Assembly (NCBI RefSeq): GCF_988243305.1 | Contig: NZ_OZ547136.1 | Direction: 5' to 3' (one strand) | Length of the DNA stretch: 64,000 nt | Position numbers and translations under genes: made by a program | The notes under the pieces: model-generated | Told to the model about the DNA's origin: nothing | Databases searched by the model: none | The model's input: the letters and a program-made list of their open reading frames with translations, nothing else | Shown here: piece by piece, positions 18,987-28,233 of the stretch | Layout of the letters: each line of letters starts with the position of its first letter | Numbering within the stretch: position 1 is the stretch's first letter

Positions 18987-19057
18987 TGTTACGCTGTCTC
19001 ATGGTGTTCTCTGAGCCAGCGTAACCGTGGGAAAAAGGGGGCAGGATTTGCGGAATA

Positions 19058-19480
19058 TCAGAAAAGCCGGGGCTGCGTGCGCTCCTGATGCAGGCGACGC
19101 TGGTTGCGGATAACGGAGTAAATCTGCGTCTCTGACATCTGGTAATGGCGGCGCAGGGTTTCAATTTTTTCGCCCTGGCTCCAGCGGGAAAAAATTTCAT
19201 TATTGCGCAGTTCGGTGAAAAGGGATTCACCGACCGGGAGATAATAACCACGCCCGCCCATGTACCCGGCCTGTGCGGCTGCAACCTTACGGGCAAGCAT
19301 TCCCGCCTGAGCAGGTTCAATCCCCTGACGGTGCAGTTCAGCACTGATCACATCAACCAGGTCCCGCAGCGTGCCGGGCCAGTTCTTTTTCAGCTCATCA
19401 TCAGGAATATCATCCAGACGGTCAATCAGCGCGTGCAGCTGTTCGCTGTCACCAAACATGCTCATCTGTGTTTCAGCCAT
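19058..19480 (-). CDS. Mor/C-family transcriptional activator
   Basis: 140 aa, C-terminal region resembles Mu Mor/C as I recall it; located between gemA-like gene and lysis genes. Confidence 0.7.
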   Translation of the reverse strand: MAETQMSMFGDSEQLHALIDRLDDIPDDELKKNWPGTLRDLVDVISAELHRQGIEPAQAGMLARKVAAAQAGYMGGRGYYLPVGESLFTELRNNEIFSRWSQGEKIETLRRHYQMSETQIYSVIRNQRRLHQERTQPRLF

Positions 19481-19550
19481 ACCCGCCTCCGGTCATCATT
19501 ACACAGGGCAAGTTTAAAATAAAAATCCCGCGCTGTGGCGGGATTTGGGG

Positions 19551-20063
19551 TTAAAAGGGGGAGGATTCTTCATACAGCCTGCAAACGCGCTCATAACTCA
19601 TCACTGTACGCGCTGACATCCCCAGCACATCCAGCATCTTGCGGCGGTGCCAGCGTTTGAGACGCTCCAGCACATCAGAGGCCAGCGCGGGGTGTTGTTC
19701 CAGCCACTGCCAGTTAGCCACACCTTCGCCGCCGTTCTGAGCGACCGTCTGCGATTTCACCCAGCGGTTAAGGGCTGTTTCCCCGCCATCAGAGATAAAG
19801 CCCTGCCGGTGCATCACCTTCCAGATGGCGCGAATTTTGGCGGTCACCGTACCCGGTTTTAAGGCCCGGTTAACCGGCTTCTGACGCACTTTAAAACCGC
19901 GTTTTTTGAAAACATCCAGCACGCGGGATAACTCATCCGGTGACATATCCCGGCAACTGGGTTTACCGGTGGCTGCCAGTAGTACGGATGTGTAGGTCTC
20001 ATGGTCAAGCTGTAGATCGCGTTTTGCGACATGTATTAAGGTAATCAGGGAAGCGCGATTCAT
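19551..20063 (-). CDS. GemA-like protein (Mu gp16 family)
   Basis: 170-aa ORF immediately upstream of the Mor-like gene, Mu order. Confidence 0.65.
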   Translation of the reverse strand: MNRASLITLIHVAKRDLQLDHETYTSVLLAATGKPSCRDMSPDELSRVLDVFKKRGFKVRQKPVNRALKPGTVTAKIRAIWKVMHRQGFISDGGETALNRWVKSQTVAQNGGEGVANWQWLEQHPALASDVLERLKRWHRRKMLDVLGMSARTVMSYERVCRLYEESSPF

Positions 20064-20127
20064 TATCGTGTCTCCGTAACAACAGGCGGCATGGCAACGC
20101 CGCCCGGATAAAACTAAAGGTATCGAT

Positions 20128-20475
20128 ATGAAAATAGATTACGATGAAGTATTAAGTATTCTCACAACTTTTCAGGATGCTGAAACACCTTTCCTTACAC
20201 TACAGGATCTGGGCATGGCTGAGGCAGAAGGAGAGGAAAAGGATAAAAAAGTTTTTCATCTTATGCTTCTCGCTGATAATGGCTCAATTGTTAATGGTGA
20301 TATGCAGTCAGAAACACCCAAATATATTGGTTTCTTTTTCCATTCTCTGGGCGTTGGTTTCAGAAACACGCCCATTATGCTTACCCAGCAGGGGCATGAT
20401 TTAGCTAACGCCCTGAGAAAAAACCAATCCTTGAAAGAATCAAAAAGGAGTTTACAGACGCACCATTTGATCTAA
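20128..20475 (+). CDS. hypothetical protein, opposite-strand AT-rich cargo gene
   Basis: 115-aa ORF with AAAGG ribosome-binding site 8 nt upstream of ATG; only plus-strand gene inside the minus-strand phage operons. Confidence 0.55.
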   Translation: MKIDYDEVLSILTTFQDAETPFLTLQDLGMAEAEGEEKDKKVFHLMLLADNGSIVNGDMQSETPKYIGFFFHSLGVGFRNTPIMLTQQGHDLANALRKNQSLKESKRSLQTHHLI

Positions 20476-20498
20476 TTAAAGAAGTTACCAAATCAATG

Positions 20499-20807
20499 TT
20501 AACCAGGTTCGTCAAAGAACGTATTGGGATTGACTGAACAACTTAATTCAGCCAGTAATCGCAGGGCGGCGACAGCCGCCTGCTTGTCACTTCTTTTAGC
20601 TATTTCCGCAAGAGTATGCACAATCCATAACGGACTTAACGCCACGGCTGAATCCAGAATCATGTCATCCATAATAATTTCTGGCATATCCCGCTTGTCA
20701 CATTCTTTATCCATAAAAGAAACGAATTTCTCTGCATCTTCCGGTTTCATGCCTCCGGCGATAAGGATTTTGCGATATTCATAAGACGATCTTAATTCAA
20801 TACTCAT
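20499..20807 (-). CDS. hypothetical protein (AT-rich cargo block)
   Basis: 102-aa ORF with AGGTGA RBS 5 nt upstream of ATG. Confidence 0.55.
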   Translation of the reverse strand: MSIELRSSYEYRKILIAGGMKPEDAEKFVSFMDKECDKRDMPEIIMDDMILDSAVALSPLWIVHTLAEIAKRSDKQAAVAALRLLAELSCSVNPNTFFDEPG

Positions 20808-20822
20808 TATTCACCTGCCTGC

Positions 20823-21215
20823 TTAATCTGTTTCCAGTGCTTTGCTACGGGCTATAGCCTCACATTCAAAAAATACCGACTCCGGCACGCGCTCTTTTAA
20901 TTCACGAACAAGGAAATCATTAACGCGTTCATGACGTCTTATATTTCTTTCCTTTTCCTCCTGGCGCAATACAGCAAGGCGGTATTCAACAGCCCGGCGT
21001 TGTTTCTGAAAGACAGCCAGTGCTTTTCTGGCAGCATTACGCCATGCATCATCGCCACATGGTGCGTATTCAAGCTGAAATTTAATCTCTTCAATAGTTT
21101 CTTTGATTTTTGCCAGCAAGCTAAGACAGTCGCTTATTGTCTCCAGCTTTTCATTATCAATATAACTTCTCACGCATTCACCTCCCGTAATTCCGGTAAA
21201 GCCGAAATATGACAC
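20823..21215 (-). CDS. hypothetical coiled-coil protein (AT-rich cargo block)
   Basis: 130-aa ORF; start may instead be GTG overlapping upstream stop. Confidence 0.5.
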   Translation of the reverse strand: MSYFGFTGITGGECVRSYIDNEKLETISDCLSLLAKIKETIEEIKFQLEYAPCGDDAWRNAARKALAVFQKQRRAVEYRLAVLRQEEKERNIRRHERVNDFLVRELKERVPESVFFECEAIARSKALETD

Positions 21216-21499
21216 CAGTGCGTCACCTGTCCGTCTTCATCTTCAAGGCAGGCTCCGGTTTCTTCATCAACAAAAAAGCCTTCATACCCCATATGGCCGA
21301 TGCGCAGCTCCTGACGGTGACCATACTGAACAATCAGCACGACAGCCTCCATATCAGGTGGGAAAGTATCATTCAGTGAATGCCAGGGATAACCGCGTAA
21401 ATCCCCGAAATAAACACCGGTCAGCGTTCCGCCACAGAGCGGCATTCCGGCGGCACACACAAGAGGTTCATCTGATTCAACAAATAAGGTCGTTATCAT
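21170..21499 (-). CDS. hypothetical early-region protein
   Basis: 109-aa ORF, start overlaps upstream stop. Confidence 0.5.
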   Translation of the reverse strand: MITTLFVESDEPLVCAAGMPLCGGTLTGVYFGDLRGYPWHSLNDTFPPDMEAVVLIVQYGHRQELRIGHMGYEGFFVDEETGACLEDEDGQVTHWCHISALPELREVNA

Positions 21500-22047
21500 G
21501 GCGTTAACTCCCGTAATACAGCGTCCTCGGCAGTCCGGCGACGGTAATAAACTGCGTGAGCAGAATGTTCAGATATTCCAAACTTTTCGCCAATTTCCCG
21601 GAATGACAGACGGCGTGGGTAATCGGAATCACGCAGCGCACGTATAAGACGTACATCATCATCAGATATGCGCGTGCCGGGGCGTAACTCTCCGCACTTT
21701 GTTAATCCAGCACCAATCATTCCTGCCCGACATCTGACAGAATCTTTATTACGTCCGAGATATTCTCCCATTTGCTGGCAGGTCATTGTTCTGGCATTTT
21801 TTCGAATAAACTTATCTTCATCAGGTGTAAATCTTGGGTGTTTATATTTCAGTAACTCCGGGTATGAACTGCGCAATACACCAGTCCGGTTATATACAGC
21901 CCAGACAGTTCTTTTTATTCTGGCAGCAATATCCTTAACCGGGGTGGATGAATAAAGCGCAATCAGCAGCGCATCTTCTTCAGGTGTCCACGGACGGACA
22001 TGAGCGGGGGCGCGACCTTTTAGTCCCATGGGTTGTAATTTCATCAT
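21496..22047 (-). CDS. hypothetical early-region protein with Myb/SANT-like WTPEEDxxL motif
   Basis: 183-aa ORF; motif resemblance only. Confidence 0.5.
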   Translation of the reverse strand: MMKLQPMGLKGRAPAHVRPWTPEEDALLIALYSSTPVKDIAARIKRTVWAVYNRTGVLRSSYPELLKYKHPRFTPDEDKFIRKNARTMTCQQMGEYLGRNKDSVRCRAGMIGAGLTKCGELRPGTRISDDDVRLIRALRDSDYPRRLSFREIGEKFGISEHSAHAVYYRRRTAEDAVLRELTP

Positions 22048-23244: not shown

Positions 23245-23775
23245 TTATTTATTCAGTCCGGCGTCCTGTTCAAAAGGCTCGACATAAAAACTTTCAGCGC
23301 CTTTATTCACCTTGATACCGGCAATGCCTTTCACCGCATCCGGCTCCGCCAGGACGGCTTCCTTGTTCACTTCCTCTTTCGTGCGGATGAAACGCTCAAG
23401 CCCCATACGGCGCAGCATTTCAATCACACCTTCCACATCACGGCTGACGCTGCATGATGGCGTTCCCAGCCGCCATGACACCGTTCCGGTGGTCAGATTG
23501 GCTGTTTTGGTTTTGCCGCCGTTCGTCAGCTCATCACGGTTGGTTTTGCACCAGTCCTGAATCCCTTTAAAAAGCACTTTGATTTGCTTTTTAAGATTTT
23601 CAATCTGCGGCGTATAACGGGCGGTGATTTCTGCCACTTCGTCATTCATCGCCGTTTCCAGGCGCAGCGCCTCTCGCTGAATATCTCCCAGGGTGCGGAT
23701 ATCACGGCTGACTTCTTCCCGGGTCTGCGGTGCCGCCTCGGCTGCGGCCTTTAATTTTGTAACGCGTTTAGCCAT
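23245..23775 (-). CDS. gam: Gam host-nuclease inhibitor (Mu Gam-like DNA end-binding protein)
   Basis: 176 aa; translation closely resembles Mu Gam as I recall it (…DELTNGGKTKTANLTTGTVSWR…). Confidence 0.85.
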   Translation of the reverse strand: MAKRVTKLKAAAEAAPQTREEVSRDIRTLGDIQREALRLETAMNDEVAEITARYTPQIENLKKQIKVLFKGIQDWCKTNRDELTNGGKTKTANLTTGTVSWRLGTPSCSVSRDVEGVIEMLRRMGLERFIRTKEEVNKEAVLAEPDAVKGIAGIKVNKGAESFYVEPFEQDAGLNK

Positions 23776-23786
23776 TTTGTTTTTCC

Positions 23787-24080
23787 TTATTGCAGTGTGC
23801 CTGATGCTTTATGCACGCGGTGGCGTTTAATGATGGCATCCGCTCCAAAAGACTGTGCAGATGCCTGAAATTCCGCTGAGAGAAACTGAATAATTGCAGG
23901 ACTGTGATACTGGAGAATACTTGCATAAACGTCACAGAGTGACGTCGGCCTGTTATCCGTATCACGTTCTGTTTTCACATCCACTCCAATCTTTTCATGC
24001 ACTTCAACACAGTCATTGCCTGCCAACTTTTCGTCATGCGAAACATGATTAAATTCAAAAATAACGCGTACTTTGCTCAT
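23787..24080 (-). CDS. hypothetical small protein, paralog of adjacent ORF
   Basis: Starts MSKVRVIFEFNHVSH, adjacent ORF starts MSKVVHIIFEYKEHVIH; start set at internal Met. Confidence 0.5.
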   Translation of the reverse strand: MSKVRVIFEFNHVSHDEKLAGNDCVEVHEKIGVDVKTERDTDNRPTSLCDVYASILQYHSPAIIQFLSAEFQASAQSFGADAIIKRHRVHKASGTLQ

Positions 24081-24084
24081 GGAA

Positions 24085-24357
24085 TTACCCCTGTTGATTA
24101 AATTCATTACCGTTAATAACCCCGGAAGCCATGCCTCTGTCTTTCATGAATGCACTGGCTTTCATTGCCACAAGCTCTGCGAAGTTTCTGCTTTCCGCGA
24201 GCATAACCACCCCAAAAATCATGGCGGGTCCATCACCTTTCTGCTTTATCCCGGTTGAACGTATGTCCAGACTTACCCCCATGCGCACTGTTCCATCAGC
24301 GTTTTTATGGATAACGTGCTCCTTATATTCGAAAATAATGTGTACGACTTTACTCAT
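24085..24357 (-). CDS. hypothetical small protein, paralog of adjacent ORF
   Basis: 90-aa ORF, shared N-terminal motif with 23787..24080. Confidence 0.5.
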   Translation of the reverse strand: MSKVVHIIFEYKEHVIHKNADGTVRMGVSLDIRSTGIKQKGDGPAMIFGVVMLAESRNFAELVAMKASAFMKDRGMASGVINGNEFNQQG

Positions 24358-24903: not shown

Positions 24904-25131
24904 TTAGCTGACTTGTTTCGCACCAACAGAACGGCATATTCCGCTGTAAACTTCTGTCGCACCTTCGCGATCAAGTCCGGCAGATATCACCATTCGTGTG
25001 CGGTCATTAAATTCAAAAAGTAAATCGCCACATTCTTTATTTTCGGCCAGTGAAATCACCTTCACGTTATCGAAATTAACCAGGTAAAAGCGTCCGTAAA
25101 TATCAGGAATATTAAATACCGCCATAATCAC
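24904..25131 (-). CDS. hypothetical small protein in the Mu kil position
   Basis: 75-aa ORF immediately downstream of B; positional inference only. Confidence 0.45.
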   Translation of the reverse strand: MIMAVFNIPDIYGRFYLVNFDNVKVISLAENKECGDLLFEFNDRTRMVISAGLDREGATEVYSGICRSVGAKQVS

Positions 25132-26069
25132 ACCTGTGAGAGTAATTCAGGGTTGGTATAAACCTCTTTAAAGGCCGCATTAATATGTTTTTCTGTCAGC
25201 GCCGCGCCTTCACCGCTGGCGGTGAGCCACGCCTGGTTAAGCGTATGTGTCAGAACGCGTAACGCTCCCGGCTTTTCAGCGATAGCCTGCATGACGGCCA
25301 GCTCAGCCTCACCACTGATCCCCCACGCCATGGCAATGGCCAGCACATCCGCCTTTTTGGCCTTGCGAAGTTGTTTTGTACGGGCAAGACGGCTGAACAG
25401 GCGCGATAAATCATCAAAGGCGCGGCGTCCACCTTTAAACAATCCGCGCGGGTTACCAATAAGCACCATCCCGATCCCCGTGGCGTCCTGAATTGCCCGG
25501 AGTTGCTCCAGACCGTCAATACCAAGATGATCCGCCTCATCCACAATCACCAGTCCACGCGTTCCCATCAGGCGACGGCGGATGGCGCGGGATAATGCCC
25601 CTTTGTTCGCGCGGGTGTAATCAATCCCCAGCGCATCGGCCAGCTCCAGCAGACACTCCGTGACGCTGGAGTGCGCGGGTGACAGGGTGATCATCCAGGT
25701 GTTTGGTTGCTCCTGGCAGTAATTACGGGCAGTGGCCGTTTTACCCACACCCGGTACGCCCACAATAACGTTAATACAGCCCATCAGGCGAACCGCCTGA
25801 AACAGTGCGCGCAGCTCCTGGACTGTCTGAGTTTCCACAAACTGCGGCGGTTCCGGCAGTGCGCTTTGTTTATTCCAGTTCTCATACCAGGAGCGCAGGG
25901 AAGCAGCCACAGCAGCGTTATCGCCTTTATATTTTCCCTTACGGAAAGCCGATAATGTGCCGTCGGAAATTCCCGCCTCTCTGGCGATGGCATACTGCGT
26001 CAGTACGCCGCCATCAATAAGTTCATCAATGGTCTTGATTACATCGTTAATATCGGTCATATTATTCAC
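25128..26069 (-). CDS. transposition ATPase B (MuB-like AAA+ target DNA activator)
   Basis: 313 aa, Walker A GVPGVGKT, translation resembles Mu B. Confidence 0.9.
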   Translation of the reverse strand: MNNMTDINDVIKTIDELIDGGVLTQYAIAREAGISDGTLSAFRKGKYKGDNAAVAASLRSWYENWNKQSALPEPPQFVETQTVQELRALFQAVRLMGCINVIVGVPGVGKTATARNYCQEQPNTWMITLSPAHSSVTECLLELADALGIDYTRANKGALSRAIRRRLMGTRGLVIVDEADHLGIDGLEQLRAIQDATGIGMVLIGNPRGLFKGGRRAFDDLSRLFSRLARTKQLRKAKKADVLAIAMAWGISGEAELAVMQAIAEKPGALRVLTHTLNQAWLTASGEGAALTEKHINAAFKEVYTNPELLSQV

Positions 26070-26142: not shown

Positions 26143-28233
26143 TCAGGCCAGCGGATCACTTTCTTTTAATTTCGCTTCGAGCAACTGCAATCCCCGCTGG
26201 AAATTACGCTCGTATTCTTCATCAGGTTCATCGTCAGCGACCGGTTGCTGAACGATCACCGTATTACCCACAGGGCGGTATATATTTTCCAGCCACGGCT
26301 CCTGTGGCTTGTGCTCCAGCACGTTGACAATCTCATCCTCGGCATCACGGATTTTTTCCTCTGCGCGTTTACGCATGCCTTTAAGGCGCTGCTGCTGTTT
26401 GTGGTATTCCGCGCTGACCGGGAAGGCTTCGCGTTTATTGCCGTCCCATACCGCCTCGCAAATCACGCTGCCATCCAGGCGACGTACGGTAATTCGTTCG
26501 GCATCATGAATGTCATAGCTGATAAGCACCTTACGACCATGCTCGTCACGCAGCTCGGGCGCGTAGTAAATATTATTCAGCCAGCGTATTTCACAGCGTC
26601 TTACAGGGCGCTCCACCATCGGCCGGAACATATCCCGCAGTTCAACATCGGACAGCCATTCAATTTCCGTGTCCTCTTCCGCCAGGCGTTTTTTTCTGAA
26701 CTCCGCCGGGCTGTAATGTTTACCGTTCGGCTTCATGGGTAATTCATCGTGCGGCCGGTTGTTGTACCACTCAACACCATCACGAATGGCATCAATCAGT
26801 TCAGCCCAGGACGGTGAATCACGCATCGCTGACTGCTGCCGGGCGTTCAGCCGTTTGCCCTGTTGCAGGGCAGTAAATGCCGAGCGTAAATCGCGGTTGG
26901 TTTTGCGTAACGTCTCGCGATCTGCACCTTTCCCGAAATAGGTGCGGTATTTACGGGCTATGCGCATCGGTAATGTGCGGTTAAGCCGTTCGATAATGCC
27001 TCGTCCCTGCGGATTACCGGCAATCCCGGTCGGGTGATTAATCCCCAGTCGCGGCAGTATCCCCACAACCTCCTTATCCAGGATGTCGGCGGTTTCCCCG
27101 GAGCCGTTATCCGAGTAATACAGAAACGGTTTGCCGTGATGGCGAATGCCGTGCTGTATGGCACCGGCTACGGCGAAAACATTTTCAGCCAGGTCAAGGC
27201 TCCAGCCCACCACAAAGCGCGTGCCACCGTCGATAACAAAGGTCACTTCCGGTGCAAATGGCCGACCGTGAACCGGGTGTGCGCATTTCAGCTTCATGCC
27301 GTGACCGTCACCAATCCAGACATAATTCACCGGCATTTTTGACCAGTCGCGGCGCGTGAATCCCTCAAGCTGGCGGTATTCACTGCCGGTCACCCGGCCT
27401 TTTTGTTTCACCACTTCCGGCAGTTTCTTCATTGCGCGGCGAATGGTGTCATAAGACGGCATGATATCGAGCATATAAGGCTCATCAGCGTGCCGGTGCT
27501 GCCATTCAGCGACAAAATCCTCGTAAGCCTCGGTCATTGGTCGGCCGTTTGACTGGCGATACTGCGCCAGAAATTCGGGCAGCCAGTTAATATCTTCGGC
27601 TTTTATTTCCTGGCGCTTACCCGGTGCCAGTAAAAGCAGGCGTTCAGCGGCGTTCTGCGCCTTGTTAAAGGCCGCAATCCAGCGTTTCAGCGTGATTTCA
27701 CTTAACGCGCGGCTGTTTCCCTTTTTGGCGTTCGCCGTCTCAACCATTGCCACAATGCGCTCGTCCAGCTGCGAACGTGCCAGGTTGTCAACGATAAACC
27801 GGATAGCCTTCGCACAGCTGAAACCAGGTTGTTGCGCGACTTTCAGAACTTCGCTGACGATCGCGATTCGTGCATCAGCCACCTGGCGCTGGTTTTCAGT
27901 CAGGGCATTAAGGCGTTCGACCATCAGTTGTGGTGATCCGCGATATGCCTCCACCGCATCAACCACGGCAGGCGAGCGTCTGGCCTTTGTCACCACTGGA
28001 GCCGGTGATTCATCGACTTTTTGAGTCATCAGTTGCAGGGCGTAGCGTTCACGTAATGCCTGCTGCGTCACTTCAGGTAAACAGTCGATGCTGTATTCAG
28101 TTGCTTTAGAGCCTGAGCGACGACGGGAACAACAGCTTTTCCCTTGTACGTAACGTTGTAATGCCTGGCGAATACCTTTTGTTGTAGCAGGCATTCCGGG
28201 CGCACCAATCAGTTCTTTTGCAATGACATACAT
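26143..28233 (-). CDS. DDE transposase A (MuA-like)
   Basis: 696-aa ORF between ner and B. Confidence 0.85.
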   Translation of the reverse strand: MYVIAKELIGAPGMPATTKGIRQALQRYVQGKSCCSRRRSGSKATEYSIDCLPEVTQQALRERYALQLMTQKVDESPAPVVTKARRSPAVVDAVEAYRGSPQLMVERLNALTENQRQVADARIAIVSEVLKVAQQPGFSCAKAIRFIVDNLARSQLDERIVAMVETANAKKGNSRALSEITLKRWIAAFNKAQNAAERLLLLAPGKRQEIKAEDINWLPEFLAQYRQSNGRPMTEAYEDFVAEWQHRHADEPYMLDIMPSYDTIRRAMKKLPEVVKQKGRVTGSEYRQLEGFTRRDWSKMPVNYVWIGDGHGMKLKCAHPVHGRPFAPEVTFVIDGGTRFVVGWSLDLAENVFAVAGAIQHGIRHHGKPFLYYSDNGSGETADILDKEVVGILPRLGINHPTGIAGNPQGRGIIERLNRTLPMRIARKYRTYFGKGADRETLRKTNRDLRSAFTALQQGKRLNARQQSAMRDSPSWAELIDAIRDGVEWYNNRPHDELPMKPNGKHYSPAEFRKKRLAEEDTEIEWLSDVELRDMFRPMVERPVRRCEIRWLNNIYYAPELRDEHGRKVLISYDIHDAERITVRRLDGSVICEAVWDGNKREAFPVSAEYHKQQQRLKGMRKRAEEKIRDAEDEIVNVLEHKPQEPWLENIYRPVGNTVIVQQPVADDEPDEEYERNFQRGLQLLEAKLKESDPLA

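Follow-up and report, generated by a model that had tools for sequence, protein, structure and literature searches.

What is a single gene doing on the strand opposite to a whole phage operon? We have addressed this question in a stretch of 64,000 nucleotides (nt) of the contig NZ_OZ547136.1 (NCBI RefSeq assembly GCF_988243305.1), called the window from here on, which carries a Mu-like prophage of Escherichia coli with its lytic genes on the minus strand, from about 28.5 kilobases (kb) down to the window start. Open reading frames (ORFs) of that strand tile positions 81-28483 nearly without gaps, and the sole gene-sized gap is found at 20064-20498, next to gemA, so that the plus-strand gene located there is the only one antisense to lytic transcription, the repressor excepted, as a preliminary description of this DNA had stated. 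The same description had joined this gene to two convergent minus-strand genes in a horizontally acquired block of three, with superinfection exclusion, defence or anti-defence as the usual functions of such cargo. The three ORFs are all present where it had placed them. The explanation that we lean towards overall is that the plus-strand gene is an accessory antisense gene of the DUF2513 family, located in a variable slot of the type occupied by gp15 in phage Mu, probably expressed in the lysogen, possibly one half of a two-gene cassette, acting as a regulator or exclusion factor (a function that we infer), and broken in this prophage. The features that the argument needs are these:

20128-20475, plus strand: frameshifted DUF2513 ORF of 115 amino acids (PHROG 585, E = 2.8e-12, profile positions 1-102 of 128)
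20418-20423, plus strand: run of six A (A6), the frameshift site; A7 in intact alleles (alignment with E. coli JKHS016)
20424-20537, plus strand: out-of-frame 3' remainder of the DUF2513 gene, encoding the authentic C-terminal helices
20499-20537: convergent 3' overlap of 39 nt between the intact DUF2513 frame and p102
20499-20807, minus strand: p102, an early gene of 102 amino acids of the phrog_1988 / SfMu gp14 family (PHROG 1988, E = 1.3e-38)
20823-21173, minus strand: early gene of 116 amino acids, phrog_6158 (PHROG 6158 aligns to residues 15-130; RefSeq gives 351 nt for the identical gene)
19551-20063, minus strand: gemA, gp16 family (PHROG 286; RefSeq name 'gp16 family protein')
20050-20562: segment without homology to the majority (O157 Sp18-like) relatives in a three-way alignment, comprising the slot cargo and the last ~20 codons of p102

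Residues 1-98 of the 115-amino-acid ORF match an intact protein of 136 amino acids and the final 17 are out of frame. Translation in the next frame after the A-run gives a convincing continuation of the DUF2513 protein, PILERIKKEFTDAPFDLIKEVTKSMLTRFVKERIGID followed by a stop, and the intact frame would end at 20537. We have found the same stretch of about 1.15 kb, one base longer (1153 nt in the relative versus 1152 nt in the window), in five complete E. coli genomes at 98.6-99.9% identity, where RefSeq annotates a 136-amino-acid 'DUF2513 domain-containing protein' and all five copies are intact. The intact allele is carried by E. coli JKHS016, TOE17, JE86-ST02, JE86-ST05 and 102651. Among the near-identical copies in IMG/VR eight out of nine are intact as well. 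The ninth, IMGVR_UViG_2619619134_000013 (L026 / L053 / L135), matches the window exactly throughout the early region, A6 frameshift included, and to judge from this identity both are probably the same genome or strain. Besides, a profile search of 1.84 billion representatives retrieved 256 clusters, typically of 130-146 amino acids and aligned end to end, which indicates a native length of 136 amino acids; at 115 the window ORF falls short of the ~130-146 of full-length single-domain members. The DUF2513 gene in the window is inactivated, or at least truncated, by a deletion of one nucleotide in the A-run, so that its product retains residues 1-98, which form the winged-helix part, and loses two to three C-terminal helices. 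What had been described as a gene of 115 amino acids does exist as an ORF, but it is the frameshifted remnant of a real gene of 136. Programmed frameshifting at the A-run was set aside, since the window has A6 and not the slippery A7 and the relatives encode the protein in one frame.

By sequence, the gene belongs to Pfam DUF2513 (PF10711), to PHROG 585 and, distantly, to YjcQ (PF09639). The faint resemblance to a prophage DUF that the preliminary description had sensed was correct, DUF2513 being the family concerned, and no characterised family was matched. The intact allele matches the Pfam model weakly (E = 2.9e-4, 21.6 bits, residues 2-111), while the model is matched by 58 of 104 homologues at E <= 1e-3 and by 86 of them at E <= 0.1. 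The window lineage is divergent, as seen in this E value and in the replacement of R84 by methionine, and the window copy in addition is without the C-terminal helices. An AlphaFold2 model (104 homologues; predicted local distance difference test 97.2, predicted template modelling score 0.89) consists of a helix, a long helix, a four-stranded wing and three helices, that is, the protein is predicted to be a MarR/PadR-like winged-helix domain plus three C-terminal helices. The winged helix-turn-helix fold is common to the model and to the MarR, PadR and HxlR regulators, but in the DUF2513 model helix 2 of the helix-turn-helix is replaced by an acidic loop. None of the 104 homologues matched MarR or PadR in Pfam, and a sequence-profile search of the PDB with DUF2513 gave no informative match. 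The domain fusions suspected in longer homologues (P0069, P0076, P0106 and others) were discarded because they look like mis-called starts or frames.

The place where the gene sits varies among relatives. On the left side gemA is the fixed boundary of the slot, divergent from the DUF2513 gene and separated from it by a spacer of 64 nt. The O157 Sp18-like relatives align with the window up to about 20050, where gemA has its 5' end, and again from ~20562, already within p102 near its 3' end. Actually, 211 of 216 E. coli genomes with this prophage family match only window positions 20563-21215, which they keep at about 93% identity, and the DUF2513 gene was present in 5 of the 231 E. coli genomes that carry the family. 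A survey of the slot in E. coli genomes and 80 gemA-anchored IMG/VR loci gave four states:

State 1, 13 loci: antisense DUF2513 gene
State 2, 10 loci: antisense gene of 79 amino acids ('alt79'), tail-to-tail with a sense gene of 95 amino acids
State 3, about 18 loci: two small sense genes of 65 and 98 amino acids
State 4, 6 loci: empty, with p102 directly abutting gemA

More distant phages had only sense ORFs in the slot. The DUF2513 gene is accessory, found in some close relatives and absent from others, and the three genes together are not universally conserved at this position. As a separate observation, in locus L057 (IMGVR_UViG_3300012089_000042, about 3394-3450) the DUF2513 gene is deleted except for the part that overlaps p102, and p102 is intact.

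The antisense arrangement is not peculiar to this prophage, as gp15 of phage Mu sits at exactly this position. Mu gp15 (Mup15) has 88 amino acids and lies at 7896-8162 on the opposite strand, directly upstream of gemA, overlapping gp14 by 62 nt. It represents a second family of antisense occupants, for which we have located the following members:

Mu gp15: L217 (NC_000929), 2397-2663
SfMu gp16: L216, 3014-3280
alt79: L016, 2577-2816

SfMu gp16 is the orthologue of Mu gp15, and alt79 is weakly similar to it (28% over the N-terminus). Like the DUF2513 gene, all of them are single ORFs that oppose the early operon immediately upstream of gemA, converge on the preceding early gene and overlap it, and are accompanied by the same GC-rich hairpin near the ribosome-binding site of gemA. 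They differ in size, 79-88 amino acids versus 136, and in the overlap, 62 nt versus 39 nt. With DUF2513 as tblastn query, the only matches among 50,697 phage records were two Klebsiella phages, and nothing was found in Mu or SfMu. Sequence comparison thus places the plus-strand gene of the window in the 'gp15 slot' with an unrelated protein, the equivalence being positional only. For Mu gp15, SfMu gp16 and alt79 we found no reported function in the literature. To this extent the locus falls within what is already known: DUF2513 is a catalogued DUF and the gene is an accessory occupant of the Mu gp15 slot.

The hairpin that these loci have in common was mapped in the window and in relatives:

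20084-20107, minus strand (gemA sense): GC-rich hairpin just 5' of the gemA Shine-Dalgarno; a 71-nt segment folds at -22 kcal/mol
L217 (Mu), 2693-2712: equivalent hairpin
L216 (SfMu), 3311-3330: equivalent hairpin
L016, 2531-2551: equivalent hairpin

Equivalents were found in Mu, SfMu, L016, L028, L004 and L008. The hairpin has the form GGCGGTG-N6-CACCGCC, the window having GGCGGC/GCCGCC with one compensatory change in the stem. In L016, L028 and L004 it is followed by a U-run, as in a terminator; the U-tract is poor in Mu and degraded in the window. The structure is common to DUF2513 and alt79 cassettes, Mu and SfMu, and is missing in homologues with a 30-nt spacer. We considered it as an operator for DUF2513 and rejected the idea, the same hairpin being found with the unrelated gp15/alt79 genes and in Mu itself. 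Another hairpin, strong and resembling an intrinsic terminator, was seen at 19523-19546 on the minus strand (9-bp stem plus T-run, -13.5 kcal/mol, z = -3.95), in the gap of 70 nt between the gemA stop and the mor start, and its presence there means that expression of Mor would need read-through or a separate promoter.

What could such a gene do for the prophage? Being antisense to the lytic operon, it is probably expressed in the lysogen. Facing the lytic transcription unit, it would be well expressed only while that unit is silent, and after induction the convergent early transcription running through it would shut it off. The product would be a small dimeric winged-helix factor with one of two roles: control of host or incoming-phage transcription, or binding of a protein partner to exclude superinfection. 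Classical prophage morons include bor of lambda, gp15 of HK97 and sieA of P22. In the transposable phage Fc02, exclusion genes (olg1 / gene 10) overlap, lie on the opposite strand and are active in lysogens, and the early operon has accessory genes that are described as a plasticity region (PMC9936078). With all these the DUF2513 gene shares its small size, its accessory nature, a deviant composition, an orientation against (or an independence from) lytic transcription and a patchy presence in relatives. Patchiness (the 5 of 231 genomes given above) and composition (guanine plus cytosine, GC, of 0.39 as compared to its neighbours) are both as found in morons. The proposal of a horizontally acquired moron finds partial support in the plus-strand gene, accessory, in a variable slot and deviant in GC, and none in the three genes taken as one unit. 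There is also a difference, as exclusion morons are typically membrane proteins and the DUF2513 protein is predicted to be cytoplasmic and winged-helix.

Several results weigh against the reading of a lysogen-expressed regulator or exclusion factor. The window copy is frameshifted, and its function is probably not carried out here. The family is acidic, with a mean net charge of -4.4, which weakens a simple DNA-binding reading, and the window protein has methionine at position 84, the wing position where 96% of the family has arginine; DNA binding is plausible from the predicted fold, not assured, and both the acidity and M84 point against it. No PADLOC or NCBIfam family matched DUF2513, and literature searches for DUF2513 / PF10711 turned up no papers. 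A sigma-70 promoter scan found no consensus site upstream of the plus-strand gene, manual inspection of the upstream regions of DUF2513 homologues revealed no common -35/-10 pair, and of the two hairpins that flank the gene (20084-20107 and about 20562-20580) neither is a convincing plus-strand terminator. Finally, in most relatives p102 stands alone, with no DUF2513, and lambdoid and inovirus loci have DUF2513 but no p102, so that the pairing of both genes, to which we turn below, may be partly positional. If the inference of a lysogen-expressed accessory gene holds in spite of these points, the slot upstream of gemA would be a recurrent landing site for such genes, and DUF2513 would gain its first testable biological context, that of a prophage-borne winged-helix factor encoded against lytic transcription and often paired with a small helical protein. 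Specific strains and constructs for the study of genes of the Mu gp15 type follow from this. As regards this particular window, the candidate carries a frameshift, its two neighbours in the supposed block belong to the ordinary early region and no known defence system was matched.

The wider distribution of the family offers another view of the gene. In 19 of 22 distinct loci the gene stands by itself against a long series of phage genes encoded on the other strand. Most DUF2513 loci are Mu-like, their homologues of MuA, MuB, Gam, gemA and Mor reaching as low as about 40% identity, and in about 19 distinct loci an adjacent convergent gene of the p102 family was found downstream of DUF2513. The same pair geometry appears in other places too. 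In L046 the pair occupies the gemA-mor interval; in L047/L049/L050 (L049 5535-8291) it is embedded in a myovirus baseplate cluster, flanked by spike/hub and wedge genes, and the partner there matches PHROG 1988 with E = 2e-13; in L048 (4095-9031) it separates an ejection/transglycosylase gene from ant, which codes for the Ant anti-repressor. In a lambdoid prophage the DUF2513 gene is antisense within a cargo island of ~4 kb between the tail genes K and I (L042 3500-7500). In a Klebsiella phage it separates the lysis genes from the terminase genes, and in another case it lies at the margin of an integrated inovirus. The cargo island of L042 encodes as well lipoprotein or secreted proteins, a TonB-C-like protein and a membrane zinc-ribbon protein.

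A doubtful yet serious rival to the accessory occupant of the slot is that DUF2513 and p102 form a functional cassette of two genes, in which the helical p102 would be produced along with the lytic genes, and lysogens would make the winged-helix protein from the other strand. Control by mutual antisense or transcriptional interference would come from the overlapping 3' ends, and the whole would be an undescribed system of exclusion, defence or switching from lysogeny to lysis. The tail-to-tail geometry repeated at four positions (upstream of gemA, gemA-mor, the baseplate cluster and ejection gene-ant) argues for it, as does the overlap of 39 nt, conserved also in homologues of 45-54% protein identity (elsewhere it is 30, 29, 18 or 15 nt, or the genes directly abut). 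Besides, the divergences of both proteins are correlated (Mantel r = 0.73, p = 2e-4). These sequence patterns suggest that both genes move as a unit, but overlapping ends are a physical linkage that would favour co-transfer even without a shared function, and co-transfer need not mean co-function. Also against the cassette are the p102 genes that stand alone in most Mu-like relatives, the 211 of 216 E. coli genomes among them, the DUF2513 homologues of 30-47% identity without p102, and the failure to find an informative fold match for p102. Somewhat less probable still, we consider, is the broader version in which the convergent DUF2513/phrog_1988 pair would be an undescribed mobile two-gene prophage module that inserts in antisense orientation in phage operons with no relation to each other (the Mu-like early region, the baseplate cluster and a position resembling the immI region of P22), its convergent and 3'-overlapping transcription being on in the lysogen and off, or counteracted by the partner, in lytic growth, with a role in superinfection exclusion, defence or lysogeny control. 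This pair is the only part of the finding that could be a new system. The slot might otherwise be chiefly cis-regulatory, the antisense unit and the hairpin 5' of gemA insulating or timing gemA-mor relative to the early operon, with the identity of the protein secondary. Unrelated ORFs (the Mu gp15/alt79 family and DUF2513) in the same antisense position and with the same gemA hairpin, the terminator-like U-run after it in L016, L028 and L004, and the second strong terminator between gemA and mor speak for this. We regard it as unlikely, however, given that DUF2513 is a well-folded family of 256 clusters also found far from any gemA, that the slot may be empty or hold sense genes without hairpin, that homologues with the 30-nt spacer are without hairpin too, and that Mu and the window have a poor U-tract.

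The block of 115, 102 and 130 amino acids acquired horizontally for defence or anti-defence, as proposed in the preliminary description, seems to us very improbable. The whole of 20064-21215 is indeed AT-rich: GC at 20100-21215 was 0.417 versus a prophage mean of 0.547 (standard deviation 0.046, z = -2.8, equal-sized prophage windows), and the 1.1% of equal-sized windows that were as low all lie in the repressor region, at 28.2-29.4 kb. By gene the values were 0.39 for the plus-strand gene and 0.43 and 0.44 for the minus-strand ones, whereas the adjacent gemA has 0.553 and the late genes have 0.575 +/- 0.025. GC falls abruptly at the boundary with gemA, yet low GC is a general trait of the small early genes, as in 23787-24107 (0.431) and 24904-25131 (0.422). 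It is also true that in the alt79 class (E. coli 600029 type, L016) all three genes are swapped together for alt79 and alt95. However, the differences from the majority relatives are confined to the plus-strand gene and the final ~20 codons of p102, and another class of relatives replaces the 116- and 109-amino-acid genes and retains p102, which is ordinary gene-by-gene mosaicism rather than one cargo unit. p102 itself is an early gene conserved in many Mu-like phages: its family includes SfMu gp14, and a scan anchored on a motif recovered p102-family genes from 41 IMG/VR loci, every contig of sufficient length also carrying a gemA homologue. The other minus-strand gene most likely starts at GTG 21173, and this start overlaps the stop of the upstream 109-amino-acid gene as GTGA; the gene is translationally coupled to that one, the reading of 130 amino acids up to 21215 most likely being an over-extension, since RefSeq and PHROG agree on 116. 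Both minus-strand genes lie within the early operon with coupled starts and are ordinary members of its mosaic, semi-essential region. As to defence, none of the three proteins fits a PADLOC model: in PADLOC-DB 2.0 there was no match for DUF2513 or the 116-amino-acid protein and only a non-significant one for p102 (E = 0.068). p102 and the 116-amino-acid protein matched no family in Pfam or NCBIfam either, and PADLOC and NCBIfam scans of the alternative slot genes gave no match.

The conserved tail-to-tail partner of DUF2513, p102, is all-helical. It was modelled as a HEAT-like bundle of five helices, for which no specific structural neighbour came up, and in a sequence-profile search of the PDB it had only weak similarity to domain III of RuvA (E about 0.03). 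A palindromic GC hairpin inside p102 (20562-20580, GGCGGC-GACA-GCCGCC) coincides with the conserved p102 motif AAVAAL, ~25 nt beyond the stop of intact DUF2513. Relatives retain it whether or not they carry DUF2513, and for this reason it is probably a by-product of alanine codons rather than a terminator.

The rest of the early region is ordered as follows, from its upstream end:

26143-28233: MuA, early operon
25128-26069: MuB, early operon, followed by small genes
23245-23775: Gam, early operon, followed by five more early genes and then the block studied here
19058-19480: Mor, after gemA and followed by lysozyme

A scan of 19000-21600 against Rfam found no RNA family, except for a chance match to a small nucleolar RNA. 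At the repressor end the prophage joins host DNA at ~29497, in the tcyJ-fliZ-fliA-fliC region of E. coli, and the host flank at this point has 98.9% identity to many E. coli chromosomes.

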